A stretch of 51,013 nt of DNA, filler included, from Catajapyx aquilonaris (lineage: Eukaryota), in NCBI GenBank assembly GCA_000934665.2. It is 2 parts of 2 records of this genome, joined end to end, with 100 filler letters (N's around TTAATTAATTAA, not from the genome) between each part and the next. Parts side by side here need not be neighbours in the genome. Positions count along the whole stretch, not along the records: positions 25,535 to 51,013 come from JYFJ02005365.1; 1 more part is not named here. One strand, given 5' to 3'. The translations under genes and the position numbers were made by a program. Position 1 is the stretch's first letter, and each line of letters opens with the position of its first letter. Of the stretch, positions 25,433 to 51,013 are shown in pieces. The notes below the pieces were generated by a model that saw only the letters and a program-made list of their open reading frames with translations, had not been told where the DNA came from and searched no databases.

Positions 25433-25534
25433 TANNNNNNNNNNNNNNNNNNNNNNNNNNNNNNNNNNNNNNNNNNNNTTAATTAATTAANNNNNNNNNN
25501 NNNNNNNNNNNNNNNNNNNNNNNNNNNNNNNNNN
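25433..25534. other. Assembly gap with central TTAATTAATTAA linker
   Basis: N runs flank a 12-mer that places stop codons in all six frames. Confidence 0.9.
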
Positions 25535-28500
25535 AACAGGCAGCGTGGCGGACTTCCTCGCCACCATCAACACGGCAGCAGAAATTTCAGGCTGGACCGA
25601 GGCCCAGAAAACCTTAATACTGAAACTCCGAGTCAGCGGGGAAGCCCGTTCCTTCCTACATTCCTTACCAAGTTCCTCCACGCTGTTATGGGCGGAAGTA
25701 GTTGAAGCCTTGAGAGCACGGTACGAAGAACCAATCACCACGGCGAGCCTCATGCAACAATTGGGAGAAGTAAAACAGAAGGAAGGAGAAAACGTACGGG
25801 CTTTCGCGGTCCGAGTCCGGCAGCTGGGCTCAAAAATAGTAGAAACGACGAGATCCAGCCACAACAACACCCTCTTAACCGCACAATTGACGGCACAGTT
25901 CGCCAGAGGGCTGAAGTCCCCGGAGATTCGCAGATTCGTGAGCTATGCGAACCCTCCCACTCTAGACGAGGCTGTATCTATAGCCGCAACGCAGGAAGCG
26001 AACGAGGACGCAACGCTAAAAAAGTCAGTCCGACTGATGGAAGCGAAAAGCACGGAGGACAGATTGGAAGAAATACTGCAACGCGTCATGAACTTCGTCG
26101 TAACGAGAGAAGGGAAGGAAGAACCAGAAATGAGGGAAGCCACTAGGGGACGGAGCCCCGCCTCCCGAGGAAGCTACCAGCAAAATGGAAGTCGAGACCT
26201 CACCCCGGGAAGACCCAACAGAGACAACAGTAGGGGGAGGAGCCAATCTAGGGAAAGGGACAATTCGAGGGGAAGGTATCCCCAACACCCCAACTACCCT
26301 CCCCAGAGATACCCAAACCCCGCCCCCAACCACCCCTACTATCCCAGGCCGAGCTACTCTTACAACCTCCCCACGCCCAGCTACACCCCCTCGAAAAATC
26401 ATAACCAACCCAAACCTGCAAATAACCAAGCAGGAGGAATAACACAGGGACATCCCTGCCACCTATGTCTACGTTACGGCCACGATCCCAACGAATGCTG
26501 GACTCAATCCTCCCAGTGTTTCCGCTGTGGCGGGTGGGGCCACCTCGCCAGGGCCTGCCAGGGAAACGAGAAACGGCCCTCCCAGGACTAAGGGCGGAGG
26601 GCCACGAATCATCGAGAAGAGTTCATAGAATAACGAAGAGCGCCATCTTCGTGGATATCACCATCCAAGGCAGACCAGCAGTGTTCCAAATAGACACAGG
26701 AGCGGGCCTCGCTGATAAACCCAGAATGGCTACCACTACAAACAGGACTGGTCAAAGATGAGGAGACAACGGAGTTAGTAGGCGTCACGGGCGATGTCCT
26801 ACCCGTTCACGGAATCCACATGTTCGAGCTAACCATCGGAAAGACCAAGATCACCCACCCTCTGGGTTGTGACGCAAGGGAACAAGGCGTACGACGGCAT
26901 ACTCGGACAAGACTTCATCAATGACCAGGAGATTGACATCTTGACCAGCCAGTCGACACTACGTCTGGGGGATGAACACATCCCATACACCCGCACCAAC
27001 ACCAACCTCTCCAAGAGTGCCCCTATCAAATGGATAGACACACGACCCATTCCCGCCCGATCCGAGATAATCACAACCGGGCTGACGGACAGGAAGTACT
27101 GGAACAAGACCATCCTGCTGGAGCCCGTGGGGCAGCCGGTGGGCGGATTCGTGGTGGCCCACGCCCTCACGTAAGTCTCCGGGGACGGTCGAGTCCCTAT
27201 CAGGATCGTCAATACCACTGAGGAAGACATCCACATACCGGCGAACGCAACTATAGGAAAAGGAAGCTCGTCATACGCACTGTACGACACCTCGAAGAAC
27301 AACGCGGCCCAGCTGAAGCCTGACTGGACCGAACTCAAGATGGGACGCCTGGAGAGCCACCATCAAGACGACCTGAGGAACCTACTACAGGAATACAAGA
27401 ACGTGTTCCAGGCAAAGGACGGCCCCTTGGGGCAAACATCGACCGTAAAACACAGGATTGAGACGGGAGAAGCACGCCCCATCGCCTGCAGACCTTATCG
27501 AATCCCGGAAAGGCAGAGAAGAAGTAACCGCCTGCATCGACGACATGCTGCGGCATGGGGTAATTGAACCGACGTCATCCGCATGGGCGGCGCCAGTCGT
27601 CCTAGTCCAGAAGCCCGACGGCAAACTGAGGTTCTGCGTAGATTACCGAAAATTAAACGCGGTCACAAAACGAGACATCTACCCCCTACCCACCATCCCG
27701 GAGACGCTGGACAAGCTGGGAGGGTCCAGATACTTCAGCTCCTTAGATCTCCACACGGGATTCTGGCAAATCGATGTGGACGAACGGGACAGAGAGAAAA
27801 CGGCCTTCATACTACCTAACGGCAGGTACCAATTCACAAGGATGCCGTTCGGCTTAGTTAACTCACCCAGCACCTTTCAAAGATTAATGGACGTCACACT
27901 CGCCGGACTTAAGGAAGACATTGGTCTAGTGCACCTAGATGACATCATTATTTACTCGGAGTCCTTCCCGGAACACCTGAGACGCTTACGGTCAGTCCTC
28001 GACAGACTCAAGAAGGCGGGACTAAGGTTAAAACTATCCAAATGCCATTTCGCCAAGGAACGAGTCAAATACTTGGGACACATAGTCTCAAGAGACGGAG
28101 TCGAACCCGACCCCGCTAAGATCAGCACCATCCAAACCTACCCGGAGCCACGCACCATCAAACAAGTCCGAGCCTTTTTAGGCCTCGTCGGGTTCTACAG
28201 GCGATTCATCCCCAGATTTGCGGATCTGGCGCAACCATTGACCCGGCTGACGAAGAAACCCGCTTACCCAGGACAAAAACTGCAGTGGGAGGAAGAACAG
28301 AGCCAGTCCTTCAATACCCTGAGAAACTCCCTCACCAAATTCCCCGTCCTGCGCTGTCCCGACTTCTCAAAGCCATTCACCCTCTCTACTGACGCTTCGG
28401 CATACGCCATTGGCGCCACATTATCACAAAGATTTGAGGACGGAGAGCATCCCTTGGCATACCAGAGCCGGCAACTCAGCAAGGCCGAGAGAAACTACTC

Positions 28501-31000
28501 GACAACGGAAAGGGAATGCGTAGCTGTCGTGTGGGCGATGAGGTCGTTCAGATGCTACCTTTACGGCCGACACTTCACCGTCATCACAGACCACGCCCCC
28601 GTAAGGTGGCTAATAAACCTGAAGGATCCGTCTTCCCGGTTGGCCCGGTGGTCAGTCGCACTCCAGGGCTACGACTTTGAAGTAACACACAGGCCCGGCA
28701 GGCTCCACTCAAACGTGGATGCCCTCAGCAGGATCGAGGTCAACACCGTCAAAGGGTTGGAGGCTGCTTGGGATAGGGCCAGACTCAAGAAGGAACAAAC
28801 AGAGGACCCACATTGCAGTCACATCCTGGCCGACGTCCGGTGCGGAAGAAGGCAGGACTTCCATACGTCAGACGGGATCCTGTACACCGACAAAAAGGGC
28901 AGGGAAGTCGCCGTGGTTCCCAAAACCATGACGGAGAAAATTATGGAGCTCCACCATGACCCCCCGTTTGCCGGCCATCTGGGGTACCACAAAACCCTGG
29001 CAAAAATTCAACAACAATTCATCTGGCCAGGGATGACGAAGGACATTCGACAGTACTGCAAAACCTGCACACCCTGCCAGAAGAGGAAGCAGCCCAGACC
29101 CCGAGGAACGGCTCCCCTCCAACCTTACCCAGAAGTGCACCTGCCATTCGAGCGCGTATCGATGGACTTCATGGGGCCACTACCAACATCAGAGGGCGGG
29201 AACAAACACATCCTGGTGCTAACAGACTACCTGACGAGATATCCGGAGGCGTTCGCCTTACCAGACCAGAAGGCAGAGACGGTTGACAGAGTGTTGGTCA
29301 ACGAGGTGTTCCCACGGCACGGAATCCCGCGCCAGCTGCTCACGGACCAAGGCCGGAACTTCACATCACGCCTCATGAAGGATTTATGCCACCTTCTCGG
29401 GGTGAAGAAGATACAGACATCGGCGTACCACCCTGCGGCAAACGGGCTAGTGGAGAGGTACAACCGCACGTTGGTAGATTGTCTTAGCCACTACGTCAAC
29501 AAGGACCAAACCAACTGGGACGAAGGGGTACCACTCGTTTTGATGGCGTACCGAAGTGCGGTACAGGAGTCAACGATGGAGACACCCTTCTTTCTCATGC
29601 ACGGACGTGACATGACCCTACCAGCGGATGACACCTTCACAGCACCGCCAGAGCCATACAACGACAACCCTTCCTACAGGACCAAGTTAACACGCCGCAT
29701 GCAGTCAGAGTACGAAGTGGTCAAAGAGCGGTTAAAGGAGGCCTTCCAGAGGCAGAAGAGACATCACGACCGGAAAAAGAAGAAAAAATACATCGAGGAA
29801 GGTGACCTAGTCCTACTCCACACCCCGAATTGCCCACCCCGCCTCGCCCACAAACTCTTCACCCCTTGGGACGGACCCTTCCGAGTACTCCAGCAGACCC
29901 ATCCCTGCAACTACCTGATCCAACACATGAAGACGGGGAAGAGGCACCACGTCCACGTGGACCGCCTCCGACCATTTACACCCCGACACCCCTTCCCTAT
30001 GATGGATGACGCACCCCAAGCACAAGCGACTCAACCAGAGCCAGTCACGGAGAGGATTGTCGAAGCAGACGTCCCGATCCTGGAGGATATATGGATCGCC
30101 CCGCCTGCCGTCACCTCCACCGTAGCACCGAGCCCGGAGCGACGTGACCTGTTAACGGAGAGGAGCGGCCAGCCAGTAGCAGATCAGCGACAGTCCACCC
30201 ACCGGACGACGGAGGACCGCGACCAGGACAGACCACAGCCCACGCACGGCTACAACCTCCGCAGCCGTGGAAACCCAGCCGAGTGACACTAAACATTCAG
30301 TGGACACCCAAGTGTTGTGTTGAGGGGCGAAGGACAACCAATATGTATAGTGTTGATATGCGGGAAGTGAAATGTACTGTTGAGTTGAGAGTGACATTAT
30401 GGAATATTCTGTTTTAGCTAACCGTTGAAATGATAATGCAGTGGTGTCCCGTGTTGTAGGGACACCATGCTTGAAACTAAAGAGGGAAGTATGTAGCGTG
30501 AGAGAGAGAGAAAGTTGACAAAGTCCCGGTAGGGTGCAGCAGGGGCCGGCAGGGTGCAGAAGGGGAAGTGAGGACCCGAACCAACCCACAGTAGAGTGAA
30601 AGCAGAGGGCGCGACGAACGATCAAAAATTGAAAAGCAGATCTCGAATATTTCAGACTCAACTGGAATTTTTAGAGCAATTTTACTAAACAAACAAATGT
30701 TATGGATCGGATAGAAACCCCAATCAATTGTGAAAATAGAGTGTTACATTAGTAGATAAGCACCACGAACCAATAATGCACCAGTTTAATACATTCTTGT
30801 GAAGTCAAAAGGGCTATAACACGAAGCCGGTGGGCAGAATAAAGCAAGCTGAAGCTGAGGTGGAAACATTGTGGAAACCAAAGTGGAAGCATTGGAGCAG
30901 GAGAGTCGTGTTGCGTCTTTTTCTGAACTCCCTAACCCCCTCACCTTTCACCTACCTCACCTTTCCTCACCTGGTCTAGCGCTCTTTGTAGCTGCTGTAC
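25535..31000 (+). mobile_element. Ty3/gypsy LTR retrotransposon, degenerate: gag 25545-26591, pro ~26560-27450 (broken), RT-RH-IN 27458-30286, 3' LTR from 30492 (end approximate)
   Basis: Gag with two zinc knuckles; protease IDTGA; RT motifs FCVDYRKLN and MPFGL; RNase H TDAS...ERNYST; integrase HHCC and DDE core; GPF motif. PPT AAAGAGGGAAG precedes TGTAGCG. Confidence 0.92.
27458..30286 (+). pseudogene. Gypsy pol (RT, RNase H, integrase); upstream part frameshifted and YxDD changed to HLDD
   Basis: 942-aa ORF with domain order RT-RH-IN; frameshifts near 26710 and 27515, stop at 27172-27174. Confidence 0.88.
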
Positions 31001-31259
31001 AGGCATAGATTCCCACCCCCTTTAACTCTGCGCTCTTCAGCTGCGGGTTAAAGCCCTCTCACCCCTCGCTCTCAGCGACGCCTTACGTCGATGCCGGCCG
31101 ACAATAGGAGCGGCAAGAAGAAGGAAGGCGGCGGCAAGACAAAGCGGGGTTGCCGCGGAGGTCGGCAGCAGAAGACCAAGGCTCTGCTGAAGGAAGCAAG
31201 GCAAGGCCATTGCTCGTTCATTGATTCCTGGGTGCTCATTTCGAAAGCAGCGTGGTCCA

Positions 31260-31715
31260 AAAGCAAAAGTGTGCTATAAGCGTAAGAGAAGGGCAGATGG
31301 TCATCTTGCAGTTCCTGATGCTGTCCGCATGGCAAATCCAGAGCCTGCCCACCACATCCCAATAAAAACAGACACCAGGAAGCGCTGCCGAAATTGCAGC
31401 ATTAGGAAACAGGTGGAGGCAAGGACTTGGTATACATGTTGCGCATGCCATATTTACTGTGCCTAACATGCTTCAAAGAGTATTCCTATTATAGAAACAA
31501 TAAAATGTGGAAAAAAAAGTGATTTTCAATTGTTGACATCCCATTACCCCAGACTGTTACTGGGACACAAGGTGTCCCGGCAATTTTTAACAATGATGTC
31601 ATTGTTGTTGAGGTATGAAAAAATTTCCTTGTCATCTTATGTACTGTACGTACAGAATAAAGTTCTGATTTGATCTTGCATAGAATTTTCTAACAGAGTT
31701 TTATCAGTTAAAGGT
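31260..31715 (+). mobile_element. piggyBac transposase C-terminal Cys-rich fragment and decayed 3' end
   Basis: HHIPIKTDTRKRCRNC...RTWYTCCACHIYC, then frameshifted CFKEY; palindrome GGGACACAAGGTGTCCC downstream. Confidence 0.7.
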
Positions 31716-32665
31716 GCCCACAATGAATGCTCTCCTCATGCTATGGAATGACTTGAAAGATAACTGCTTGCAAGCAGAAGCTGTGATTTTTCACTTATCT
31801 AAAGGGTTTTCGCTAGTAAATATGGCAACTTGTAAGGAGCAAACTACGGGATTGAAACGTCATTTTTGGGAAAAGACAGCAGAGATATTCCAGGCGGATC
31901 ACGAGTTTGAAATGTTTGAACTACCATTTGCTGATATGATTCAATATTGCATGAAGTTAAATGGGAGACCACTAACGTCAATACGACCAATCCAGCCTCG
32001 AGGAGTTACTGTTGGTGAAAGGTTGCTCTATTTGTACCGTAAGTACTTACACTACTGTAACAAAAGCTGATGACATGGAAAGAAGCATTGGGTCTTAGCA
32101 ACCATTATATGTGGTAGAACCACATTCACGACAAGTGATTTCAAACCTTCATGAGCTGGGTCCGGAGTTTTGGAACATTGGAGAGGCTTTTTTCAGACAA
32201 GTTAGCCTGAGCTGGACTGGCCTGGTGTACAATGCACATGTGGAGGTGATTGCTGATCTAAAGTCCCAAATGGGCGGACAATGGCGTATGGTGCAGGATG
32301 CTGCCTTAACAACAAGTATACTACAAGAGATGGAACAGTATGCTACAGCCAAAGTAACAGAGTATATTAAGCATCAATGGCAACCAAATAGAGATTATTT
32401 AGCCAGCAGGCTTAGCAGGAGATACTATATCAATGCGAATTTTGCACTGATGGAGCAGAGAAGGACACAGTGGCATCAAAGAGGCCCACAGGGTGTTGAC
32501 ACCCCCAGGGAAACACGATACCGGAACCCAGCCGACACTCAACTATTACTGAATGTTCAGCATGGTCAAGACATACCTTCTGGTCGGGGGCTAGGGCAAG
32601 GTCAGTCCCGTGGCCGTGGTGGCGTTCGTTGGAGTAACTATAAAGTCGACTGTTCCTACCTCTAA
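31714..32665 (+). pseudogene. Disrupted ORF of unknown origin (two adjacent ORFs, 118 and 184 aa)
   Basis: Protein-like ORFs 40 bp apart that can be joined across one frameshift and one stop; followed immediately by AATAAA. Confidence 0.4.
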
Positions 32666-32989
32666 ATAAATAATGTCGATTACACTAGTTGCTGTTATGT
32701 TGACGTATTATTTAATTGAATGAATAAATGGGAAGGAGGGGCTGGAGGGCCATACTTTTGGCTATATCAATCCAAACTCCTTATTATGTTGGGAAAAACT
32801 GCCATTTTGGTGCATTCTTGCTAACGGCAGATAACGCAACAGACAAAATATACAATAATCCACCATTGTCATGTCCCCCAATGTCTGACAGTAGTGACCA
32901 TAGTGAATTTTCCATTCTTGAGGACGATCAAGTGTGCCTGGAGAATGCGAGTACTACGCCGCTGGATGGACGTGTCGAAAGGTTTTGAA

Positions 32990-33480
32990 AATGTATCCAT
33001 GTGACAGCTGTCGCTCGGTACTACTGTCAAAGGATAGGGAAGCTAAAGCTATTCATCAAGTATTTTTAAGAAAAAACTTCTGATGAACTGAAGAAAGGAG
33101 ATTTTGGGTAATTTTACGTGCCTTGAGAGATATTTATGATCTGAAGGAGGAGGCATTGAAATGTAAATGTTACGTTTGGCATGAAGGTGAGGGAAAGCGC
33201 GGCGTTAACGAAATACAACGTGAAATGAGCAACACCTTCTCATACCTCACCAAATCCTATCTTACAAAACCATGGACCCCCAACACCAGTTACCTCCTCT
33301 GCAAACTTAACAGGGCCTTCCATATAAACCACAATTACCACATGGCAGTTGTGGACCATACGTACATAGTTCCGAGTTCAACATATCCTTCAAGAATCCG
33401 AAGTCTGACACATGCGCTAAGTGTGATAAACATCAAATTGATATTGCCGAAGCCAAGCGACAAGGCAAGGGCTATGCGCA
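32990..33480 (+). mobile_element. Sola1-like transposase fragments in scrambled order
   Basis: IYDL...CYVWHEGEGKRGVNEI (33130-33215) and EFNISFKNPKSDTCAKCD (~33375-33430). Confidence 0.65.
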
Positions 33481-35849
33481 TGGTGGAGGTCACGGATGTG
33501 AAATGGAGAAGTGCGGTTCAAAGTGCGGAAATCCGGTCATCGAGTAATGCTACTTCTGTCAATGTCCATTTTTGAGTCATATTTTTTTTTTAGTCTGAGC
33601 AATGGTGAAATCGGTGTTCAGTTTGCCATCATGATGCAATGTGGCGCAATGTTGCGCAAGTTTACGTCAGCAATGTGAGCGGGGATTTTCCCTGCAGTTG
33701 TTTGTGCTTTATTAGCTGATGCAGCATCTTTCAAATCCATTGTCTTGTTTTATGTAGGGAGTAGCCTCTCCCGGGGTCTCATGGCCCGCACGTGGTTGGA
33801 CCACGGTTAAGGTCTTGTGACGTCAGAAATAGTGGGACCTTGTGCGAGGCGTTCCTTCTTGAAGAAGGAGGTGTGGAGTCGGAGTGTGGGGGCCTGGCTT
33901 TGTGCTGTGTCAAACATGCTGATGTAGTTGTCCAATCAGTGACGTGTAAATTTTGCGGCATTTTGAATTGACCAATAGGAGTATAGTTTTGGGTCTTTTG
34001 AAATGATTTTGGATAGTAGGCGGATAGTATCGGGAGGCTTGCCTCGGAAGGGAAAGCGGTGGCTTCGGGGTCTTTTGTCTGGGGCTTCTCGTGCTAGGTA
34101 GACGTGCCGGTTTGCTCTCCGACATGTAAAGACAAAGGCTGTTAGCTTTTTGTGTGCGGCGAGTGCACTAGAGTCAGGCTTGTGTGGCAGTATGGTCGCG
34201 AAGTAATTGGGGATAGCCGCCGGGCTGTTTGTGCGCACTTTTGGCAGTCGGTGCTGCAATTTTTGGGTGACCAATGTCGAGTCCAGTTTGTAGTGTAAAA
34301 TAGCTTCGGGTGGGTAGAAGCAGTGTGTGGGGTCCCATGCGGGTTGAGTCAGTGTAACGGTCAGTTGGGTGGGAAATTTCGGGAGTAATTTTGAGTAGTT
34401 TATTTTTGTACACAAAAGTGAGGTTGCAGGTTGAAAATTCAGTGGGTGCCGATGTGGCTTGCATAGGTGGGTGATCCAGTCACCCCGGGAAAATCCATTG
34501 TAACACCCTCCCACTCATCCACGCGTCGGTGGAGAAGATTTCAAGATGGCTGACCCGGTTCCAAGATGGCTGAACTTCCCCCACAAGATGGCGGACGGAA
34601 GTGAGAGGGACCACGCCACCATGGTTGTCCACCCCTACCTAACTGAGCCTGGAGTGGTGTGCGGACTGCCTTCCTGCTGAAGCGGGCTGCCTCAGACGGT
34701 TGCTGGTCGTCAGGAAATTATTGTATTGTAAGCGGTGGTTGGTTGAGAAAACCACAAGTGTTTGTTTTGATCGGAGAGTTGCTGTAACTGTGTGAATAAT
34801 TGGACTCAATAATAATTTGGTTTTGAACAAAAACATTTTGTCGACTACTCTTTCCATCTTGCATCGCTCATATCACAACTTTGGCAAGAGGCCACAGGGG
34901 GCTTATGACAGTTTGGTTGTTTGTCCGCTGCTTGCCACACTTCTGCCGCACCAGTGAGGCTTTCCGAGTGCTGTGATTCATTGGGTCATAAGGTGTCAGT
35001 ATTTAGAATTGACGACGATGAATCCAGTAATGAAAGTGTTGTTACATGCATTTCTTTAAGTAGTGAGAAAAATTTAACGTTAATGATAGAAAAGACGGTG
35101 GTCGCTGGGACGTCGGAACTTCATACGTGCACCGTCACGACGACCACCACTACACCAAAGCCAGCGAAGCCACTGCCTCCAAATGGACGTGATGCTCTTC
35201 TACCTCTTCTCATTTCATCGGTGATCAGGTATAGGTCCTACATCCAGCCCCACACTAGCTTTCCATTGTGCTGCATTCTCCATCACTTTGCCTGCCAGCT
35301 ACTGGTACCACCTGTGCCCACGAGTCAAGGACAGCAAAGTCTGGCGAGTTTGCCATGGGTGCAAGAAACACGTTTGTAAAGAGCATTCCGTAAGTCAAAT
35401 GGCATGCGCAGGAGAATGTAGCCAAAAGTAATTGGGCTCCTTGAAACTCACTTTCTTATTCAAAAAATAAAGAGGCCTATATGTTCGGAATGAGTCCTTT
35501 CTTCGATCAGCATGCTCCCATTTTTAGTCACACCAACAGAAAGTCAAGCGTAAGTCAACCAGATCCAGTTTCATTTCTGCCACATGATAAGGAGACTCTC
35601 ATTACAGATGCTGGGTAACACGTGGGATACTGGTAAACAGTAAACAGCGCCTCATGAGTCAACCCAGGGTCAGAGGAGGTCATTTTTTAAAAAATCTGCC
35701 ACTTATAGTCCCGGCCGAATTTAGGAAGCATTTATATTTTGATTTTTTTTTGTTCGTGTAAGTTTGTAAACGAAAAAACGACGTGGGGTCCGAAAAGGAC
35801 CCATGTTACCAGTTAAGCATGGCTAATGAGGTTGCAAGTTAAGTATTAA

Positions 35850-36335
35850 ATGGTTTACGATTTTGAAGTTCTAAACCCGCCGACTTCATTGATGAACTGA
35901 AAGAATATCAAGCCATCACTGGCTGTCCCGATGGGAATTGATTCACCATCATTATCCCCCACGCCTTGCAAGGTGGGGCTAAACTGTGGTACAAATATGG
36001 AGGGGGGGCCTTCGTCGATTGGTCCAGATTCCAGTACGCGTTTTTACGTGAGTACGAACCTGCAGCATACATTGACCAGCTTCGCATGGAATTGGACAAC
36101 GGCCGCCAGAGACCTAATGAATCGGCCACAGCCTTTATCTACCGGATGTGCGAATATTACCGGAAGCCGTGGACCAGACTCGCAGAAGGGCCACCATATT
36201 CTATCCCGTATTCATCATGAATACAAGCCCTTTTTTAGGCACACCACATTCCACTCTGTCGCTGACCTTATCAATACATCCCAGGTTGGGCACGCTGAGC
36301 TGTTTCGAGTACCACGCACTGACGGCAGTTCCTGA
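35850..36335 (+). pseudogene. Ty3/gypsy Gag capsid fragment (Arc-like), frameshifted
   Basis: NPADFIDEL...GGAKLWYKY...DWSRFQYAFLREY...LRMELDNGRQRPNESATAFIYRM...ILSRIHHEYK...FHSVADL. Confidence 0.7.
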
Positions 36336-36799
36336 AATCATCCAACAGCCTCGTGTCAGGACCTCAGTGCTGAAGTTTCCAGGTCCCGCTACTTGTGTCA
36401 CGACATCTGCGGCGACTTCCTGTCCTGTGATCAACCAACGAACACCTGTGATGACATCATTGCTGAAGCATCCATGTCCACCCCAGCCGTCCATCACGCG
36501 GCCTCCTGTGACACAAAGCCAGCCTACCGGTATCGAGACTACTGTGAACATCCCACGGCCACCTGTGATGGCATCAGTACTACCGCAGATGATTCAGAGC
36601 AGGGAGAGAAGCACAGGCAGTACAAAGAGACCAGCCATTCATCACCTCCACCGTTGCCTTGTGTGGAGGGCACCATTGCTTGCTATTGTTTCAGCTGGTG
36701 ATACTACCGCAGCTGATTCAGACCAGGGAGAGAATCACAGGGCGTCATATTTGATAGTGGGTACCCGACAAAAAAAAAAGTCTGGGGAGCATTGCTCTA

Positions 36800-37400
36800 A
36801 AGAGTGTCAAGAGCTTACACAAAGTTGTCTCTGCAGAAAGAGGAGCGAATGTCACAAGTGTGGCATGTATGAGTGCTGCTGGCCACTACATCCCACCAGC
36901 TCTTATCTCTCCTCTCAAACGAATGAAAGCGGGACTGTTAGATGGAGCACCTCCAGATGCCATGGCTATGCATTCAGACAGTTGATATATTGACTCTCAC
37001 TTGTTTGTTAACTGGCTGGATCACTTCCAAAGTCATGCAAAGGCATCAGTTGAAGATTCTATTCTCCTGATATTAGGCAATCATGGGTCACATATTAGTC
37101 TCCCAGCAGTGGAATTTTGCAGAGAAAATCCCCTGAGCCTACCGCCAAGCCATAGACTACAACCACTGGATGAAGGGTTTTTTTTTTTGGACCTCTCAAG
37201 TCATGCTTTGCCTGCGGTTGCGACAATTGGATGAGGAGTCATGCTGGGCGACCAATTACCATCTTCCAGATGGGGCAACTCATTGGGTATGCCTTTGCTC
37301 TGGCCGCCACACAGAAAAACACAATCTGCATTTAGTGTGACCGGAATTTGGCCAAACAACTCTGATGTATTTTCCGATGCAGATTTTTTGCCTTCAGACG
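36800..37400 (+). mobile_element. pogo/Tigger-type (DDE_1) transposase fragment
   Basis: SAERGANVTSVACMSAAGHYIPP, LFVNWLDHF...LLILGNHGSHISL...LPPSHRLQPLD, SAFSVTGIWP; multiple frameshifts. Confidence 0.8.
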
Positions 37401-37616
37401 TCACTCACAAGGAATTACCAGGGGTGACAAAACTGCAGCTTCAGCAAATGAAGACCTTTTCCCCCCAAAAAACACATGTCAAAAATATGCGAAAACCAGT
37501 TTTCAGATGTTTCACGTATTTCAAGGCTGGAGAATAATGTAGTGAAACTCTTACACAAAAACTGCACTTGTCTGTTGAGAAACAATGCAAGGCCGGTACC
37601 TACTCCATGTCCAAGA

Positions 37617-37815
37617 TGGCTCCCACAAAGAAGCAACTTGCGAAAGAGCGGGCGGAGGAGAAGAAGAGTCAGGCTGCGGAATGGAAGGGAAAACTCATCG
37701 CGGAGGTTCGGGCCCGCCCCTGTATATGGGACAAGGGCCGACAGGACCACCGGGACCGGGAGCTCCATGAGGTCATGTGGACCGAAGTGGTGGAGGCCAT
37801 GGGCACTATGACCAG
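37617..37815 (+). other. MADF (Myb/SANT-like) domain fragment, Harbinger ORF1-like or host-derived
   Basis: KLIAEVRARPCIWDKGRQDHRDRELHEVMWTEVVEAMG; ends at a possible GTATGT splice donor. Confidence 0.7.
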
Positions 37816-38960: not shown

Positions 38961-39989
38961 ATGACCCTCTTTCTGAGTCAAGACCACCCGTTAGGCCAAC
39001 ACCAGAGCCAGCCAACGTACATAATTACCATGAGTGGTGGCGCCGGTCATCATTGCTACACGATCTATTGTCAGATGTCCTAAGAAGAACGGTGAAGGCA
39101 GCAGAAGTCCATCATTTTTATCAATAATACAGACAACACGTGTCTTCCACGAACAATAGTCGTGGGGATGGCTATACTCGAAGGCAGGCCCTAAAGGGAA
39201 TTTACTCCATCCACTTCCAATTTATCCCTTTGCGAAGCCCTATTTATGTGTAAAAAACGTTCGACGCTAGTGGATATGCGGAAGAGAAAACAAGGGTCCA
39301 TACACCGTTGTCGGGAGAGGTACTGGAAGGCATGCAAGACCCATGGTGATGGGAGGTCACCTTTATTACGTCCAGAAGATACAACACCCGAGCATGTGGC
39401 GAAGTACGTGCCTGAGCATCTGCAGAAGCCGCGGTGTGAGCAGCCCGAGAGGAAGAAGTTTGAAAACAATAACTGCATGTTCCTCGAGTGGCATGCCTGC
39501 GAGAAAGTAAGACTAGGTGAAAAGACCAGCTGATAAGCTACTGTAAAGCAGATGTGGCTATTCTGAATGCTGCATGCCTCAAGTTTCGGTCAATGTTCCT
39601 GACAGAAAATGGGGTTTCAACCTATACCACACGTACCCATTGAGGAAACCTTGCGCTGTATATTCAGACACACACTGGTGGGAAGTAGTGGAGTCGAAAA
39701 TAAAGCAAGACTCAGTTTGCATGGCAATTTTCCTGTCTCGGGTTACCCACAAAAGGTGCTGTTCCTCCAAGTGTTGAATCGCCTGCGAGATTACGAGTGG
39801 AAGCTCCACAACGCATGTAGTGTCCCTGAGAGAAGCTATCCAAGAGGTACACCAGGCATGCCAGCATGGCAAATGCAATGCCATGGGCACAGGGACAAAA
39901 AGTCCCACCTGACCTTCATTTCAGTTGCAAGAGGAAGTGCATCACAAAGGTTACGGATGAAGAAGAGCGACGTCTACTGGAGACTCGGA

Positions 39990-40713: not shown

Positions 40714-41136
40714 CGCATAGCTTCGGGGCGGGACACTGGGCTAGGGCCTGGGGGATGCGTATGGGAGTGCTGCAGTAGAGTTGGGTCCTTGAGCATTCAG
40801 GGCATTGCTTCCCCCTCCCCCCATTTTCCCTTCCATACTTGTTTTTGCTTTTAGAAATCTTAAAATTTGCATAAATTTACCGAAAACTTGCATTAAATGT
40901 ACATTAAAATTAAACTGTTGTGAACTATCACCTTTTCAGATCTTATTTGGCTCAGCTTCATTTTAAAATATAAATGTAATTTCTCTAACGTAAATTCTAT
41001 TAATCGTTTGATTGGAGTTCCTTTTGTGAGGACAGTAAATGTAAATTCTTGTTCTTGATTAGCCTTTGAATAATTGTGGATGATGAGATACATTGGCGCG
41101 GGGCCTTTATGGCCGGGTCGCCGTAACTCTGACACA
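40714..41136. repeat. Unclassified ~420-bp interspersed element, copy B
   Basis: Flanked by direct repeat GTATACACGCATA (40707-40719, 41137-41149). Confidence 0.85.
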
Positions 41137-42418
41137 GTATACACGCATAAGGAGTAGATGAATACAGTACTGAAGGAGACTGGTTATGAACACATCTTGC
41201 GTTATGGAAATACACAAATAATCACATAAGAGATTGAGGCATTTGGAGGTGGAGGAATGTTCTTTTGTTAATATTACTGACACTGCCATGATTGTTTTAT
41301 AGAATACACTTGAGTGTGTCTGAATGTAAAGGGTTATTATGTACGATGAAAGGTAATGATTATGAAGCAACTGGAAATTTTTTCCTTTATGGGTGGATAT
41401 TTGTCATGCCGCTTATGGCATAACAAGAAACTTAAACAGACTTTAATTAAGATATTAATTAGCGTCTGACGTACCCTTGAGTATCATAAATTATGTCTGT
41501 TTATTGAACACTTGCAGAGTTAGTGTACGTCCGACCACATGCAAAGATTTATTCATTGGCATTGGCATGGGCTTGTGTAGTGTGACCTGAATAATTTTTC
41601 TGCGTAAGAAAAATGTCGAAAAGCCTGGCGGTGCAAGAATTTGATGAAATTACTGGGCAATCTTAGCCTCAATCGAGCTGAGAAGTAGGAAGGTCGTGCC
41701 TAGACAGCTCTGGCCAGTTCAGTGGGGCTGATCCAGCTGCATTTGAAATCCGAGCTAGTCATGGCCTCAAAGGACGGAATCCAGCAGTTGCTGATGCAGC
41801 TAAAGGCGAACCTGAAAGAGGACATCCACAAGATTGACTCAGCAGCACAACGCACAGTGGGGCGAATATGTGAAAAGGCGGACAAAAAAATATTTTTAAA
41901 CAGTGAGTGAACAGTTTAAAAAGTATCGTATGACATTACCAGCACCTTCGAGCGTCACAAATGAGCAGTAAGTAAACATAGCTGGACTTTGGAACTTGGC
42001 AAGCTCCCAAAATGTGGCGTATGTGTGAAGGCATTCAGCCACCCTCTTCTTCAGTGTGCGTGCTGCGTCCAAAGTTGGTGGCTGTTCTTTGGTTCTACTA
42101 ATTTTGTGGCCGATTTCGCACTATGGCGTGTGCATTTCAAGGTATGAGCTACATTCTCGCCACATTTTTCATTCCCTGAAACATGTTCGAAAGTAATCGT
42201 CATGTTGAAATAGGTGTCTTTTTATAACGCTACTGCAAGTTAGAACACAGTGTTCGTGTCATACAAAACTCGCGCCCCGCCGCGCCCCTAAGATATATGC
42301 GGTAAGACAAAGATTTAGTCCTTGGCAACTGGAAAAATCAAAATTTGGCCGCACCAACTTGCACTTTATTAATAAATAAAATACATACAACCCCCCCCCC
42401 CCAAACCAGGTACGAAAT

Positions 42419-44572
42419 GTGAATCGAACATTATGTATCAAATATTTCGCTGTAAATGAGTCACCTCTACCAAATACTTACGCAGCTTTCTCTGTAACAA
42501 TAGGATTTTCGCTGACGCGAAGAGAGTTATTTAACATAATGAAAGGTGCGTCATCCACCGATTTCAAGAGCCAGTGCACCTATCTCGAACAGCAGGTGTT
42601 GGCCATGTATGGTGACTCTCAAGATGACAGTCTGGCTGCTGACGTTAGTCGGACCCTGTCTCAGAACTTCCTCAACAAATATACCCCCAAATGGAAAGCG
42701 GCCTCAAGAATGGAAGAAAGATTTTTGAAGAAGAACAGCACTTGGTCGGATGTGGAAGTCAAGTTTCACAAAAAAGCAGCTCCTGCGAAACGTGATCGGC
42801 GTGGCCGTCCCAAAACAGATTTTCCGGAGGGTTGTGAGAGGACAAAACGTCGCAGGACCGAGGAAGTAAGGAAGGTTGCAACCACACCTGAGCTTACGTA
42901 CGCTGCACAAATGAAGCTGCGTGCATCAGGGAAAAAAGATGCGGCAAACCTAGTGAAGCAAGCCACCTTAAGCACACCTACCAGAGCCAAGGCGATTCTT
43001 TCTGGATACCGGCAGAATCTTAGCAGCAAGCCTGTAATTCGTAGCAGTGGCGACGAAGCCCTTTCTATGATTATAGAAGCTCAACTGACAAAACACCAGT
43101 ACCAGATCATACGAAACCGGGCCAAGGAGAACAATGCTGACACTTTCCCATCATACCACATAGTTTCAGATGCTAAGAAGAGGTGCTACCCAGAAGACAT
43201 TGTTACAACAGACACTTCAGCTGAAGTTAAGCTACAGTCCCTGCTGGACCACACCACCGAGCGTTTGCTGCAGGTGCAGGAGAATGCCATCAAATCTCTT
43301 TCTGGTGAGCAACTTAAAAACTTAAACCTCATCTGTAAGTGGGGCTGTGACGGAAGTTCGGGTCATGCTCAATACAAGCAGACGTTTGGAGACGGTTCCA
43401 AGTTGTGCAGTGACAGTGACATGGTGCTAACATCACTCGTACCTTTGCGTCTCTGTGCACCGGATCAAGATTCATCAGAACAAATAATAGTTTGGCAGAA
43501 TCCTCGTCCATCTTCTTGCCGGTTTTGCCGCCCTGTCCGTTTTCAATTCATGAAAGAAACTAATGAAAGCATTAGAAAAGAGGTCAGTAATGTGGAAGAG
43601 GAGATAAATGCACTGTCACCTTCGCGTTCAAGTGTCAACGGACAGGAGGCAGTGGTTACCCACACATTGTTCCCCACAATGATAGACGGAAAGGTGTGCA
43701 ATGCCATAACCTCCACTGCATCCACTCAGAGGTGTTACGTGTGTGGCGCCACCCCGACTGAGATGAACGACATAGAGAAAGCACTGCAGAAGAAGGTGGA
43801 CCCAAGTACATTTAGATTTGGACTCTCGACTCTGCATGCTTGGATCCGGTTTTTTGAATGCCTATTGCATGTGGCCTACAGGCTAACAATAAAGAAGTGG
43901 CAGGTTCGCACTGAGAAAGAGAAGGCCCAACTGAAAAAGGAAAAACAGCGGATTCAAGATCGCTTTGGGGAGGAAATGGGCCTCATAGTCGATCGCCCAA
44001 GACCAGGAGGAAGTGGATCGACAAATGATGGGAACACTGCCCGACGTTTTTTTGCTGACCCGGAATCAACGTCGTCCATCACTGGCATCGATGAGAACAT
44101 CATCAGACGCTTTGGAACTGTTCTGAGGGCAATAGCCAGTGGTCAAGACATCAACGCAGGAGCTTTTCAAGCATATGCTGTTACTACGGCGAAGCTATTT
44201 GTTGACATGTACCCGTGGTACAGAATGCCAGTTACTGTGCACAAGATTCTCATCCATGGGAGCCAGGTGATAGCATCAGCACTTCTTCCAATAGGCCAGA
44301 TGTCTGAAGAGGCGCAGGAGGCCAGGAACAAAGACCTAAAGAAGTACAGGGAGCATTTCTCTCGTAAATGTTCCAGGGAAGTGACAAATGCTGATGTGAT
44401 GACGATGCTGCTAATATCATCTGACCCGAAGATTTCGAGCATCAGGCAGCTTCCAGGGAAAAAAGTGAAGGCGTTGCCTAGTGACGTTCTAGAGCTTCTG
44501 AACATACCAGAAACCCCAGCAGGAAATACTCCTGATGACTCGGATATGTCCAGTATGTCTGAAGATGAGTGA
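42419..44572 (+). CDS. Transib transposase (RAG1-core homolog); probable true start at a micro-exon 42123-42141 spliced to 42504
   Basis: Catalytic motifs KWGCDGSSG (D), TMIDGKV (D) and MSEEAQEARNK (E); WQNPRPSSCRFCRP, CYVCGATP, LSTLHAWIRFFE, GSTNDGNTARRFF, MPVTVHKILIHG; no stops. Confidence 0.95.
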   Translation: MNRTLCIKYFAVNESPLPNTYAAFSVTIGFSLTRRELFNIMKGASSTDFKSQCTYLEQQVLAMYGDSQDDSLAADVSRTLSQNFLNKYTPKWKAASRMEERFLKKNSTWSDVEVKFHKKAAPAKRDRRGRPKTDFPEGCERTKRRRTEEVRKVATTPELTYAAQMKLRASGKKDAANLVKQATLSTPTRAKAILSGYRQNLSSKPVIRSSGDEALSMIIEAQLTKHQYQIIRNRAKENNADTFPSYHIVSDAKKRCYPEDIVTTDTSAEVKLQSLLDHTTERLLQVQENAIKSLSGEQLKNLNLICKWGCDGSSGHAQYKQTFGDGSKLCSDSDMVLTSLVPLRLCAPDQDSSEQIIVWQNPRPSSCRFCRPVRFQFMKETNESIRKEVSNVEEEINALSPSRSSVNGQEAVVTHTLFPTMIDGKVCNAITSTASTQRCYVCGATPTEMNDIEKALQKKVDPSTFRFGLSTLHAWIRFFECLLHVAYRLTIKKWQVRTEKEKAQLKKEKQRIQDRFGEEMGLIVDRPRPGGSGSTNDGNTARRFFADPESTSSITGIDENIIRRFGTVLRAIASGQDINAGAFQAYAVTTAKLFVDMYPWYRMPVTVHKILIHGSQVIASALLPIGQMSEEAQEARNKDLKKYREHFSRKCSREVTNADVMTMLLISSDPKISSIRQLPGKKVKALPSDVLELLNIPETPAGNTPDDSDMSSMSEDE

Positions 44573-44797
44573 CTACAAAATGTAACGAGCGCCAAAGGAA
44601 AGTGAAGCAGTGTGTTTTTGTGACAAATGTTATTAGCTGCTCGGGACTCATTTGTAAGTTAAGTTTTTGTAACATTTTGTATAGAATTGCTGTATATGGC
44701 ACAGATAGGAAGCAAAATGAAAATATTTGACGCATTATGAGCATTTACTTTCCTCTCAATTTGCAAGTTTTCACATTATACTTTATGGAAAAGTCGC

Positions 44798-45034
44798 AAA
44801 TGACCGCCATATTGGATCCGCCATATTTACTTTCACATTTCTGAGAGCATATTTGAAATCAGCGACTTAAAAAACCCCCCAATTAAATTTTTCATGACTA
44901 TAAAACTAATATTTATAATACAATCGTCAAAAATGAGCGCCATATTGGATCCGCCATCTTTGTTTTCATATTTTTGAGAGCATATTTGAAATCAGCGACT
45001 TAAAAAACCCCCCAATTAAATTTTTCATGACTAT
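44798..45034. repeat. Two subterminal direct repeats (period 133 bp) inside the Transib right end
   Basis: AAATGAnCGCCATATTGGATCCGCCAT...GAAATCAGCGACTTAAAAAACCCCCCAATTAAATTTTTCATGACTAT at 44798 and 44931. Confidence 0.9.
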
Positions 45035-46544
45035 CCAATTCATATTTATGTATTTGTCCGCCTTTTCACATGTTCGCCCCACTGTGCAACGGCTTGAAGA
45101 TACGTGGGGAACCAAGCTGAGGGAGGTGTCCGTGGAGATCCACGCAATCAAGGCTGAGGTGCAGAAGATCCACAAAAGGACTCAGGACCTTGAACTACAA
45201 AATCAAGAGCTGAGCTACAAGTTAACCATCATGGAAAACCAGGCCAGGCGATCGAACCTACTGCTGCACGGGATTGTTGAAGAACAAAATGAGACATGGG
45301 ACAGATGTGCTGTTTTGTTCCGGAAAGTACTGAAGAATTTCCACTTACATTCTGACCCTGAGGGAGTGGAGATAGAGCGTGCTCATCGGACAGGGTCGAA
45401 TCGGGCCCAGGGCAGTAGGCCATTGATCGTCACATTACTTCGCTTTGGTGATAAGGAGGAGATTCTCCGTAACGTGAAGAATCTGTACGGTCACAAGATT
45501 AGCATTGGGAGTGACTACGCATACCCAACCAGGATGCTGCGAAAGAAGTTGCTGGCCTTTCTTAAACAAGCAAAGCAAGAAAACCGGCGAGCTCGTTTAA
45601 ATGTGGATCGACTGTTTATTGATGGGAGGGAGTGTAAGCTATCCGAGGACAATACAGAGGTGTACCCCGTCAATTACTCCAGGCACAACCCGCCGGCAAG
45701 TAACAGCCCAATAGCAGAAGATTTTCCGCGCCTTGCTGATGGAGCAGTGGGAGATAGGGTGAAGGACGTTGCAGCAGGTGCTGCTACCACAAGGTCAAAA
45801 CGTGGCCCTTCATCGCCGTTGGAAGAAGAAGCCACAAAAAAACGTCAACAGCAACAAGCTGCCCCAGATAAAAACGCAACAATGTACACCAACGTGGATT
45901 ATGGTCAACAGTAACAATTTGGGGCAGTGAGTGAGAAGAGGGCGATAGTGAGTGATCATGAAAAAGTGCAGTTAAAGTGTAAGCAGAAAGTGCCATTAAG
46001 TGGCATGTTATGCAGTGAGCGCGTTCCATTACCAACTTATATTCGGACCCGTACCGGCTTAGGTCCATCATCGTGATGTACTGCACAATGAGCATGGAAT
46101 TCAGACAGACCTTCATGCTGCTCTTATTTGCAATCATCAACTGAACAGAAATGGAGAGGAAGATCTTTTTGAGATGCTTTGACTCCTTCCCACTCAAACA
46201 AACAGACAAACAAACTGAATAAGCTCAAGACACGCAGTTTATTTTTATGACAAGATACTGCCCAAATGGTATTTGCAGAACTGCCCATATCGTCGGTGTC
46301 AAGCCAAAGGAGCGAATAGACTATTTCTTATAGTCCCCGGCGGGCTAACTTGGCAGTCCGCACACCCAACACTCCGCCCCCCACCCAAAGTCCCATCCCG
46401 GCCCGGACGCACCTCACGCCCGCCCCTCGCGGACCACTTCCCGTCTAACCAACGACACATGTGACCTTTTATAAGAACGGCGGGCCTGTCGCCGCTGATA
46501 TGACGCAGCACAAGGCATGCGCTCGTGCTGCACCATCTCGGGTG

Positions 46545-47420
46545 TCGAAGACCGTAACGTGGACCGTCATGACGACCACCACCACACCAAAGCCAGCAAA
46601 GCCACTGCCTCCAACTGCACGTGATGCTCTTCTACCGCTTCTCATTTCATCGGTGATCAGGTATATATCCAGCCCCACACTAGCTTTCCATTGTTTTGCA
46701 TTCTCCATCACTTTGCCTGCCTGCTACTGGAGACATTATAGTCATATGCTCCACCATTTTCCAGGCTGCCAGCAAGTCACGGATCAGCAGTGTCACCAGC
46801 TGGCCCATTTGCCTCCAACTCCACCACCAAATCTCCAGCCAAAGCGTGCGGCAGCTCCTGCAATCATCCAACAGCCTCGTCAGGACCTCAGTGCTGAAGT
46901 TTCCAGGTCCTGCTACTTGTGTCACGACATCTGCGACGACTTCTTGTCCTGTGTGATCAACCAACGAACACCTGTGATGACATCAATGCTGAAGCGTCCA
47001 GGTCCACCCCAGCCGTCCATCACGCGGCCTCCTGTGACACAAAACCAGCCTGCTACCAGTATCGAGACTTCTGTGAACATCCAACGGCCACCTGTGATGA
47101 CATCAGTACTACCGCAGATGATTCAGAGGAGGGAGAGAGGCACAGGCAGTACTAAGAGATCAGCCATTCATCCCCTCCACCGTTGCCTTGTGTGGAGGGC
47201 ACCATTGCTTGCGGTTGCTTCAGCTGGTGATAGTACCGCAGCTGATCCAGACCAGGGAGAGAAGCACAGGGTATCATATTTGAAAGTTGGTACGCGACAA
47301 AAATAGATTGGGAAGCACTGCTCTAAAGTCTAAAGAGTGCAAGAGCTGACACAAAGTGAGGAACGAATGTCACAAATGTGACATGTATGAACGCTGCTGG
47401 CCACTACATCCCACCAGCTC
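46545..47420. repeat. Dispersed duplicate of 35125-35305 plus 36328-36900
   Basis: Shared ACACCAAAGCCAGCnAAGCCACTGCCTCCAA, ATCATCCAACAGCCTCGT and GATCAACCAACGAACACCTGTGATGACATCA...GCTGCTGGCCACTACATCCCACCAGCTC. Confidence 0.85.
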
Positions 47421-48196
47421 ATGGGACCTACCAGCGAGCAAACGCCATAGCTGCAAGAAGGCAGCCCTATTGGAAACATTTTTCGGACCACCTAAAATAA
47501 AAGTGAACGTGAAAAGTTTTCCCCGAATCCATGTTGGCAGCATTCCCTGACATTAACTGTCCTTACATCAATTCTCTCAAAAAAGAAGCCGATGAAGCAG
47601 CTGTAGGTGTCATGGGAGCACTGCTTCTTGGAGTGGAGAAGAATTTACAAGAGAGAGCACAAGATACTGCCAAGGAGAAAATCCTGCAGAGGAGACTGCT
47701 GACGCGGTACAAAGTGTATCGAGCTGAAATCTGTGGGGAAACTAGTTTCAAAATATTTTCCCTTGAGTGGAGTGCTGGATCATCGGAGTGGTACAGACAA
47801 AATGTAGTGTGTGACGAAACTAAACTCAAAATGCGGTGCAAGGTTCACGGTTACTAGGCTTCCCCACATTGTAGAATCATCTACAGATGTTGTCACTATT
47901 CGGTGATTAGTTGTTGATGGAGCCGGGGGCTGTAGATGGCTATGCCGGGTAAGCCCCCTTATATACATATCTAATACAAGTGCCTGTTGAGTATAGCTCA
48001 ATGCCCCACGTACCAGCAGTCAAGACCTTTTTTGAAGCATGTCCCCCAAAGGATGTGTTCTTCGACTCAAGCAGGCAAGTAAATCATCAGAGAAAATAAA
48101 GAGAAAAAAAAGTGTGTGCTTGTCTATACTATTAATGTGGTCTTAAAGATTTGTCATTAGGCATTTTAAGAGGGTGTGAGCACATTGTCAGATAAG

Positions 48197-49070
48197 GCTG
48201 AAGTCCCCTGATGTTCGCAGATTTGTAAGCTATGCGAACCCTCCCACTCTCGACGAGGCGGTGTCCATAGCTGCAACTCTGGAAGCGAACGAAGACGCAA
48301 CGCATAAAAAATCAGTCCGACTAGTGGGAACAAAGAGCACGGAGGACATGTTAGAAGAAATACTACAACGCGTGATGAACCTCGTGGAAGCGAGGAATGA
48401 AGAACCACAAATGAAAGAAGCCACGAGGGGACGGAGCCCCGCCTCTCGCGGAAATTACCAACAGAATGGCAGGCGAGACCTCGCCCCAGGAAGACCCAAC
48501 CGAGAAAACAGCAGGGGAAGGAGTCAATCCAGAGAGAGGGACCATTCGAGGGGAAGATACCCACACAACCCAAGCTACCCTCCCCAGAGATATCCCAACC
48601 CCGCCCACAACCATCCCTACTACCCTATACCTAGCTTCCCTTACAACCACACCACGCCCAACTACATCCCATTGAGAAATCCTAACCAACCCAGCCAACC
48701 CAAACCCACAAATAACCAAGCAGGAGGAGCACAGGGACAACCCTGTCACCTATGTCTACGTTACGGGCGTGATCCCAACGAATGCTGGACCCAATAATCC
48801 CAGTGCTACTGTAGCGTGAGAGAGGGAGAGAGTTAGCAAAATTCCCCGGCAGGGGGCATCCGGGGGGTGAGACTCTCGCAAAGAACCCAGGAAAGTGAAA
48901 ACAGAGGGCGCAGCGGTCGGGCCATTTTTTTGGAAAGGACTAATTGAATTTTTTAGAGCAACCCTGATTTTTTTAGCATAAACAGTATACCTACTTTAAC
49001 TATGGATGGCGACCGAGTAAGGATCAATATGTCAAAGCAAGTGCATCAATGTCTAGATAAGCGATGCGGT
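48197..49070 (+). mobile_element. Truncated relative of the 25.5-31 kb gypsy: gag piece directly abutting an LTR start (48811)
   Basis: ORF 48261-48797 aligns with gag 25980-26510; TGTAGCGTGAGAGAG matches the LTR start at 30492. Confidence 0.85.
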
Positions 49071-49139
49071 GCAAATGTATGTATATTTAAGACACCAAAT
49101 GTACAAATGTAAAGTTAAAAGGACTATAAGTAGAAGTAG

Positions 49140-50065
49140 GACACTGCGGCCAAATCCGCGACCAGAAACGGCCATGTGGAGGAGGCCCTGCCCCCATCAT
49201 CCACAGAGGTCAAAAGCCTGGCCCTGAAAGAACTGTCCAGTGCATGGCAGGATGACTGGAGCAAATCCTCTAAGGGCCGTTTCCGATACAATCTGCGGAA
49301 GCGAATCGCACCCTCGCAGCCAATGCACCTAAATCGTACAGCTGAGTGTGCCATCACAAGGCTGAGGTTGGGCCATGCGGGGACCATAGACCACCTATAC
49401 CGTTTTGGCCTGGATGGTGTGACGAGCCCGGAGTGCAGATGCGGAGACAGGGCGGACGTAGAGCACATACTGCTTCACTGCAGATTTCACAGGAGGGAGA
49501 GACGCAGCTTGGAGGCGGAAATCGGATTCCGGCCTGAAAGCATTGCACAGCCTCTACTCCCTGAAGGCCCAGCAAGCAGACAGAGGAAGGTGCTGCAGAG
49601 GCTGGCCATATATCTGCTCAGGACAGGACACCTCACCCGTCTCTGAGTAGCCCATCGTCACCCACCTCCCATCATCACCTCACCGTCATAGTCACTTCAT
49701 CGTCATAATCATTCCACCGCCACAATCACCCCACAGTCACAGTCACTTCACCATCATAGTCACCCTAGGCTACTGTCATAGTCACAACACCTCATGCGCA
49801 TCGACACGAAGGGCTTGCCCGACCATCGACGTATGTAGGCACCTGGTCGAACCAGCTGACACGGTTGGCTTGCCCAGCGATCGGCTGGGGAGAACAGCGC
49901 CCTCATCACCCGTCCCCGTCCAACCCCTTCCAACCCACATCATCCTTATCCTATCCAGCCCCACCGGCTAAGGAGGGTCAATAACACTCCTGGCCCCTGG
50001 CTGCCAAGGCTCAATGCGAAAGAGCCATACAAGCCAGGCATTTCCCTTAAAACCAACCAACCAAA
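49140..50065 (+). mobile_element. 5'-truncated non-LTR retrotransposon (I-group-like) 3' end
   Basis: AWQDDWSKSSKGR...AITRLRLGH...CRCGDRADVEHILLHC (C-terminal CCHC of LINE ORF2), then a 3' UTR with CACAGT/CAT repeats and a (CCAA)n tail. Confidence 0.8.
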
Positions 50066-50401: not shown

Positions 50402-51013
50402 TGGCGCCCAGCGTGGATTTTTCCGGGTAAAGATTACCCGGAGATCCGGAGATTTGGGAAGGTAGGTTGTGACCCATAACTGCTCGCAGGATGGCGGGCG
50501 GACATGGGCAGAATGTTGGTGAGGAGTCAACTGAGGCCCAGTTGGCTAGTAAGGAGACACAGTCTGAGAGGGATGGAGTTCATTCCCAGGATGGTGTTGT
50601 TGGTACCGGATTGGCCGCGGCTGATCCGGACCAAGAAATGCGGGTGCTGCTCGGTGTAAATGCCGATGCAGATCCGGCTGCGTTGCTTGCGGCATTAAAG
50701 GCCAAGTTACTGGGGAGTACGGTGACTGGTCTAGGCAGTGATGGCGGTCCTGGGGGTTCTCCCCAGGGTGTGCTAGAGCAGGGCGGGAATGATGGGCAGG
50801 CACCTATCAATCCGCCGGGGCAGGGCTCGACGCAAGGTGTCGGGTTGCCTGCAGGCCAGGTGGCTGCACCAGCAGTAAATGCAGTTGTCACTCCGGTGCA
50901 AGTAGCAACCGGGGTGGAAAAAAAGTTGCCGGTGCGCGCAGCACCTGAACTTTTTTTTGATGGAACAACGGCCAAATCGGCTTTTGTTTTTCTACAGGAA
51001 ATCGACAGATACT
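50402..51013 (+). mobile_element. 5' part of another Ty3/gypsy element: PBS-like site and gag ORF from 50491, open to the window end
   Basis: TGGCGCCCAGCGTGG resembles a tRNA-Lys(CUU) PBS (TGGCGCCCAACGTGG). The ORF MAGGHGQ...PELFFDGTTAKSAFVFLQEIDRY is gag-capsid-like. Confidence 0.65.

Follow-up and report, generated by a model that had tools for sequence, protein, structure and literature searches.

Why should a contig without genes hold the remains of so many unrelated transposable elements (TEs), all of them reading on one strand? The question is raised by a 51,013-nucleotide (nt) stretch of the Catajapyx aquilonaris genome (GenBank assembly GCA_000934665.2), referred to below as the window, which consists of two joined pieces, piece A (positions 1-25434) and piece B (25535-51013; 25,479 nt, from JYFJ02005365.1). 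Piece B is a gene-free, TE-only contig. A first-pass annotation of the window had proposed piece B as a candidate uni-strand PIWI-interacting RNA (piRNA) cluster. Here, we report that all 7-9 recognisable independent TE pieces of piece B are co-oriented on the plus strand and that they come from at least four superfamilies, i.e., gypsy, pogo, Transib, and long interspersed nuclear elements (LINEs). Tentatively, and at less than even confidence, we take piece B to be part of a uni-strand piRNA source locus, which is, by a narrow margin, the likeliest single reading that its sequence suggests.

The co-orientation was established by a strand survey of open reading frames (ORFs). Briefly, stop-free ORFs of at least 50 amino acids (aa) ending beyond position 25000, 260 in number (115 plus, 145 minus; three of the 260 in piece A), were searched against Pfam with a cut-off of E<=0.01. 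TE-type families were returned by six plus-strand ORFs (a gypsy gag, a protease-like ORF, a 945-aa pol, a gag fragment, a pogo-type DDE_1, and a MADF) and by 0 of the 145 minus-strand ORFs, and Pfam found no TE family on either strand in any of the 221 shorter ORFs of 33-49 aa (109 plus, 112 minus). When the threshold was relaxed to E<=5 for the 21 large plus-strand and 21 large minus-strand ORFs, the sole addition was zf-Tnp_2 on the plus strand (E 0.21). The absence of minus-strand TE coding pieces reported in the first-pass annotation is therefore upheld in these ORFs; the discovery of many such pieces by systematic annotation, which it had named as the result that would refute a uni-strand cluster, did not come about among the scanned ORFs, with about 39% of piece B unannotated. 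Independently of any database, stop-free runs of at least 150 aa number 14 on the plus strand versus 6 on the minus strand, the stop triplets being 998 versus 1,004. Of these six long minus-strand ORFs, five face a plus-strand ORF of 100 aa or more (in four cases the coding sequence of an identified gypsy or Transib element); the sixth (33939-34514) matched only a translated tandem repeat (E 6e-4, among 1.84 billion representative proteins) and is, as judged from this search, without a real homologue. Comparison of piece B with itself by BLASTN gave 12 direct repeat pairs and a single inverted pair, the latter being the terminal inverted repeat (TIR) of the Transib element. In the Pfam ORF scans no host domain or exon was seen on the minus strand of piece B, and on the plus strand only the ambiguous MADF ORF could count as one; Rfam and tRNA scans of piece B gave no matches.

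The number of independent pieces is smaller than the 13 first proposed, although their co-orientation stands. If the gag, protease, and pol of gypsy copy 1 are counted as one insertion, eight plus-strand units have tool support: gypsy 1, the gag fragment, pogo A, pogo B, Transib, the LINE ORF2 tail, gypsy 2, and pogo A copy 2 (Table 1). The count is seven if the two pogo A copies represent one duplication and nine if the lead for a LINE ORF1 is included. The pieces are nested, with Transib inserted in the LINE ORF1-like frame, an element resembling a short interspersed nuclear element (SINE) in pogo B, and the gag piece in pogo A, and they are a mixture of decayed fragments and young entries (Transib; the SINE-like copies, 99% identical).

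The Transib element had been described as young and intact, and our analysis agrees. Its ORF (42380-44569) is an open 730-aa frame that matches the Transib transposase of PDB 6pqn (E 5e-131, residues 223-712); the TIRs are 41 nt long, begin with CACAGTG, and are 93% complementary, and both sides are flanked by a 5-bp target site duplication (TSD), CAACG. All the characters of the class, i.e., a RAG1-like DDE transposase, CACAGTG TIRs, and a 5-bp TSD, are thus present, and the perfect TSD and open ORF indicate that it is apparently an intact, young entry. The TIR, in which CACAGTG is followed by about 22 nt and then by an A-rich nonamer-like run, looks like a V(D)J recombination signal; TIRs of this sort have been described for Transib elements. 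Just inside the 3' TIR there is also a 133-nt tandem duplication (44798-45049; 1.9 copies, 91% identical).

The frame split by Transib is continuous across the insertion site. It had been called a LINE ORF1, and its Atlas look-alikes include clusters in which some members carry Transposase_22 or Baculo_FP; neither Pfam nor PDB gave a match, and the AlphaFold2 single-sequence model is poor (mean predicted local distance difference test score 54), being confident in a coiled coil only, so the LINE ORF1 identity is a lead only. The end of a LINE ORF2, by contrast, was recovered as proposed: it aligned to the C-terminal part of P0034 (1,290 aa, with RVT_1, Exo_endo_phos, and RNase H domains) with 32% identity to residues 1103-1246 (E 7.5e-7 and 6e-10), and its microsatellite tail (49651-49764) is built from a 17-nt unit. 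The two copies of the 425-nt repeat are direct to each other, 99.06% identical over 425 nt, and without TIRs; we consider this repeat to be probably a young SINE-like element.

Of pogo, for which two pieces had been proposed, three plus-strand units were recovered. Fragment B is related to pogo A by tblastx (37.5% over 48 aa, E 1.3e-08; E 0.021 past the insert). The mosaic of pogo A made up of 35125-35305 and 36323-36902 is repeated at 46557-46730 and 46849-47420, and pogo A carries about 900 nt more than copy 2 (35306-36322), the gag fragment included. To judge from its sequence, this common rearranged mosaic could stem from one local duplication or, equally well, from two independent insertions.

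Three gypsy pieces had been proposed, of which copies 1 and 2 were recovered; the third, a frame still open where piece B ends, had no family match in strict or relaxed Pfam or in a further search. The gag-protease region of copy 1 is distributed over three frames. Copy 2 leaps from gag (48196-48805; 82% identity to copy 1) to the equivalent of 30492-30545, i.e., its protease and pol have been deleted internally. The Arc-like gag piece was also found again, as a Retrotrans_gag match. Altogether, gypsy-type sequence makes up about 6.7 of the 25.5 kb of piece B, a sum that includes the terminal frame (about 0.5 kb) without family match. Since both ends of piece B lie in gypsy-like gag, with the same reservation for the 3' frame, piece B would represent part of a more extensive block of repeats.

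Other proposed pieces fared less well. The MADF domain is real, although truncated, but its assignment to a TE is ambiguous: MADF is not TE-specific, and the ORF could be either a TE-derived piece or the remnant of a host transcription factor. For piggyBac there is the zf-Tnp_2 match below cut-off and no PDB match. Two Sola1 pieces could not be placed, with no match by Pfam, PDB, homologue search, or Atlas; three plus-strand ORFs at 31684-33572, which are possibly what was meant, gave no family in strict or relaxed Pfam, PDB, a word-indexed homologue search, or Atlas. A resemblance to a polymerase B motif, seen by eye at about 39.5 kb on the plus strand, found no support in Pfam.

Table 1. Features of piece B, of the linker, and of piece A (window coordinates)
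Feature	Position	Strand	Evidence or remark
Ty3/gypsy copy 1	25535-30565	+	5' end cut by piece start
Gypsy copy 1, gag ORF	25491-26588 (in piece B: 25535-26588)	+	Retrotrans_gag 3.9e-08
Gypsy copy 1, protease-like ORF	27175-27564	+	Pfam scan
Gypsy copy 1, pol ORF, 945 aa	27449-30283	+	RVT_1 3e-38; RT_RNaseH 2.4e-40; Integrase_H2C2 3.2e-24; rve 8.6e-14
Possible piggyBac C-terminal cysteine-rich end, weak	31191-31463	+	zf-Tnp_2 E 0.21, below cut-off
Three ORFs in three frames, 128/188/162 aa (possibly 'Sola1')	31684-33572	+	
Pogo-type element A	35105-37420	+	DDE_1 36986-37231, 4.1e-06; C-terminus to ~37420
Gag fragment ('Arc-like gag')	35942-36217	+	Retrotrans_gag 1e-07; within extra segment of pogo A
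ORF with truncated MADF domain	37538-38209	+	MADF_DNA_bdg 1.1e-08, profile positions 1-62 of 84
Pogo-type C-terminal fragment B	38321-38464 + 38900-38989	+	Split by SINE-like copy 1
SINE-like 425-nt repeat, copy 1	38473-38896	unassigned	Splits pogo B reading frame
SINE-like 425-nt repeat, copy 2	40714-41138	unassigned	9-nt flanking duplication ATACACGCA
LINE ORF1-like gene, candidate	41704-41852 + 45087-45911	+	Split by Transib
Full-length Transib, 3,234 nt	41853-45086	+	TIRs, TSD, transposase match
Pogo A copy 2, truncated	46537-47420	+ (direct)	88-96% identical to pogo A
Gypsy copy 2	48196-48865	+	Self-comparison with copy 1
5'-truncated LINE	49140-49764	+	ORF2 C-terminus 49140-49532, then microsatellite tail 49651-49764
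Open frame running off piece end, candidate third gypsy/gag	50473-51012	+	
Artificial linker, 100 nt	25435-25534		44 N + palindrome TTAATTAATTAA + 44 N; read directly
PI3K-related kinase C-terminus (piece A)	2543-3982	+	Kinase + FATC domains; last 480 codons, single open frame
Pyruvate kinase gene, multi-exon (piece A)	16754-18966	+	
Nup93/Nic96 gene, 3' part (piece A)	24971 down to 20816	-	Nine exon-bearing ORFs

The layout of piece B, with diverse, nested, co-oriented TEs and young entries among them, agrees with the one expected of a uni-strand piRNA cluster. If piece B belongs to such a locus, a long RNA polymerase II transcript would run along the minus strand, beginning beyond 51013 and antisense to every trapped element; piRNAs processed from this precursor would direct PIWI proteins against sense TE transcripts, and insertions in the opposite orientation would be lost, either because the piRNAs that they yield are sense and of no use or because their polyadenylation signals truncate the precursor. 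Please note that we infer the transcription, its direction, the small RNAs, and the promoter from the layout of the co-oriented nested TEs.

Drosophila (PMC10643416) and mosquitoes (10.1101/2022.08.22.504762) are both known to have uni-strand clusters whose content is antisense-biased. Piece B is like Drosophila flamenco and the flam-like loci, as these are described in the relevant part of van Lopik et al. 2023 (PMC10643416), in that TE fragments from several families are nested, point almost without exception the same way, and include recent insertions among old ones, with no host genes; the strong same-strand bias across several TE families by which flamenco-type loci are recognised is found here for the coding pieces. 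It differs from them in that flam-like loci are reported to be enriched in antisense long terminal repeat (LTR)/gypsy elements, with a mapped promoter and soma-expressed one-strand piRNAs, whereas the visible part of piece B is mostly DNA transposons and LINEs, and is known from sequence alone. The mosquito core uni-strand clusters (10.1101/2022.08.22.504762) offer a likeness outside Drosophila, with content antisense to the precursor, which here is presumed; these clusters are described as arising by read-through transcription, whereas the only gene adjacent to piece B lies across an artificial linker.

Several observations weigh against piece B being a piRNA source. The chance of the observed co-orientation, first put at about 2e-4, becomes on recalculation (two-sided, at 50:50, before any correction for the number of windows scanned) 0.016, 0.008, or 0.004 for 7, 8, or 9 units, and at such values 4-16 cases would be expected by chance among the 988 windows of the genome, given similar content. 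Supported pieces span about 61% of piece B, and the remaining ~39% without annotation could conceal non-coding minus-strand elements. PolyA hexamers (28 on the plus strand, 12 on the minus strand) add no extra support, as these counts equal the expectation from base composition. The visible 25.5 kb, cut in repeats at both ends, compares with 227-1,085 kb for flam-like loci; gypsy-type sequence is only about a quarter of piece B, whereas LTR/gypsy enrichment is given as a defining property of those loci (PMC10643416). Finally, most piRNA clusters predicted in a crustacean study are bidirectional, according to the portion of that preprint that deals with them (10.1101/2025.05.30.656998).

A long intron is the first alternative to be weighed, and we regard it as only slightly less likely than the piRNA source. 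Piece B would lie within such an intron, or within another transcription unit, of a minus-strand host gene, where sense insertions are purged, their polyadenylation and splice signals being harmful to the mRNA, and antisense TEs accumulate with no small-RNA function. Intronic TEs are well known to be antisense-biased, which gives one-sided orientation of this very kind without small RNAs (PMC3517506, PMC1794541, PMC3088655); the biases set out in the sections of PMC3088655 on orientation are partial, however, and concern mainly LTR elements and LINEs, whereas here at least four DNA-transposon pieces are co-oriented too. Neither an exon nor a host domain was seen in the Pfam ORF scans of the minus strand, and opposite-strand exons of one gene on both sides, by which an intronic block would be recognised, were not found in piece B. 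The intronic antisense bias is weak for DNA transposons, and selection in an intron accounts less well for the co-orientation of the three pogo pieces and Transib.

Piece A offers this alternative some encouragement, because it ends in an intron of a minus-strand gene, Nup93, which points to an assembly that breaks inside long, repeat-bearing introns. The closest relatives of this Nup93, about 70% identical in one exon, are those of spiders, ticks, octopus, and centipede. A profile built from 28 of 33 relatives was searched against the whole window; profile positions 344-822 match nine minus-strand ORFs, all in piece A, whereas positions 1-343 were found nowhere in the window by profile search, in which tblastn concurs. 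Since positions 1-343 are absent from the window, the exon at ~24923 has an upstream intron, inside which piece A ends. We considered whether the TE block of piece B is that intron and dropped the idea, since the linker that divides the two pieces is artificial, carrying a dodecamer with stops in every one of the six frames, and since their near-equal lengths (25,434 versus 25,479 nt) suggest that they are contigs sorted by length and not neighbours. For the same reason of the linker, no feature of 1-25434 is a known neighbour of piece B, and the Nup93 case shows only that the assembly breaks inside long introns. The piRNA source and the intron have one step in common, i.e., a minus-strand transcript by which sense insertions are selected against; all that sets them apart is the purpose of that transcript, which sequence alone cannot tell.

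As likely as the intron, in our judgment, is a neutral TE graveyard, in which chance would have acted together with non-independence (duplication, or the pieces of one element counted apart), a sense preference of retroelements that enter the A-rich strands of older elements, and the selection of the window. The fall of the independent count from 13 to 7-9 speaks for it, as do the pogo A mosaic, if locally duplicated, and the number of such windows expected by chance at p 0.004-0.016. The 50:50 null is moreover not right for all TE classes. A ~2-fold sense bias has been measured among nested insertions (Alu, L1, and ERVL) in human intergenic DNA (Levy et al. 2010, PMC2836564, Table 3), which makes this null too strict for a LINE or SINE landing in older A-rich elements; the plus strand of piece B, being A-rich (A 0.284, T 0.229), could favour the entry of LINEs and SINEs in the same orientation. 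That bias, however, as given in the table cited, is only ~2-fold and concerns human Alu, L1, and ERVL, and it offers no reason for a co-oriented Transib or pogo. The repeat pairs, which are all direct except for a TIR, also speak against a neutral graveyard. To our knowledge, there is no orientation preference at targets for Transib, pogo, other DNA transposons, or LTR integrases, and yet DNA transposons and LTR elements are co-oriented here as well.

An artefact of assembly or pipeline, e.g., a chimeric contig or collapsed repeats, is very improbable: although both ends of piece B lie in gypsy-like gag and the window was made by joining two pieces, the junctions of the nested insertions are clean (TSD CAACG with the ORF1-like frame continuous; the SINE-like insert splitting the pogo frame), which is hard to get by misassembly. 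From 7-9 independent pieces, layout by itself cannot tell a piRNA source apart from a long intron or chance; these three readings lie close together, and it is as a tentative choice that we keep the piRNA source locus in first place.

Apart from Nup93, piece A contains ordinary host genes (Table 1), and a Pfam scan of its 148 ORFs of at least 58 aa found no TE family. There is a single N at 5793.

It is not our aim to claim more than one contig allows. Piece B alone is too short and too poorly anchored for a wider claim, and if one of the ordinary readings holds, it is a routine repeat-rich contig. A bolder proposal, which we think unlikely, more so than any of the readings above apart from the artefact, is that the genome has many strand-locked TE archives that act as uni-strand piRNA sources and store, unlike Drosophila flamenco, mainly DNA transposons (pogo, Transib, and perhaps piggyBac) and LINEs beside gypsy, piece B being a fragment of one such archive soon after it trapped an apparently intact Transib. 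Were a cluster outside Diptera to be one-strand and rich in DNA transposons, it would extend a known kind modestly rather than make a new one. If piece B is indeed part of such a source, it would add to the evidence for flamenco-like one-strand TE traps well outside flies and mosquitoes, and for their ability to target DNA transposons as well as retrovirus-like elements.

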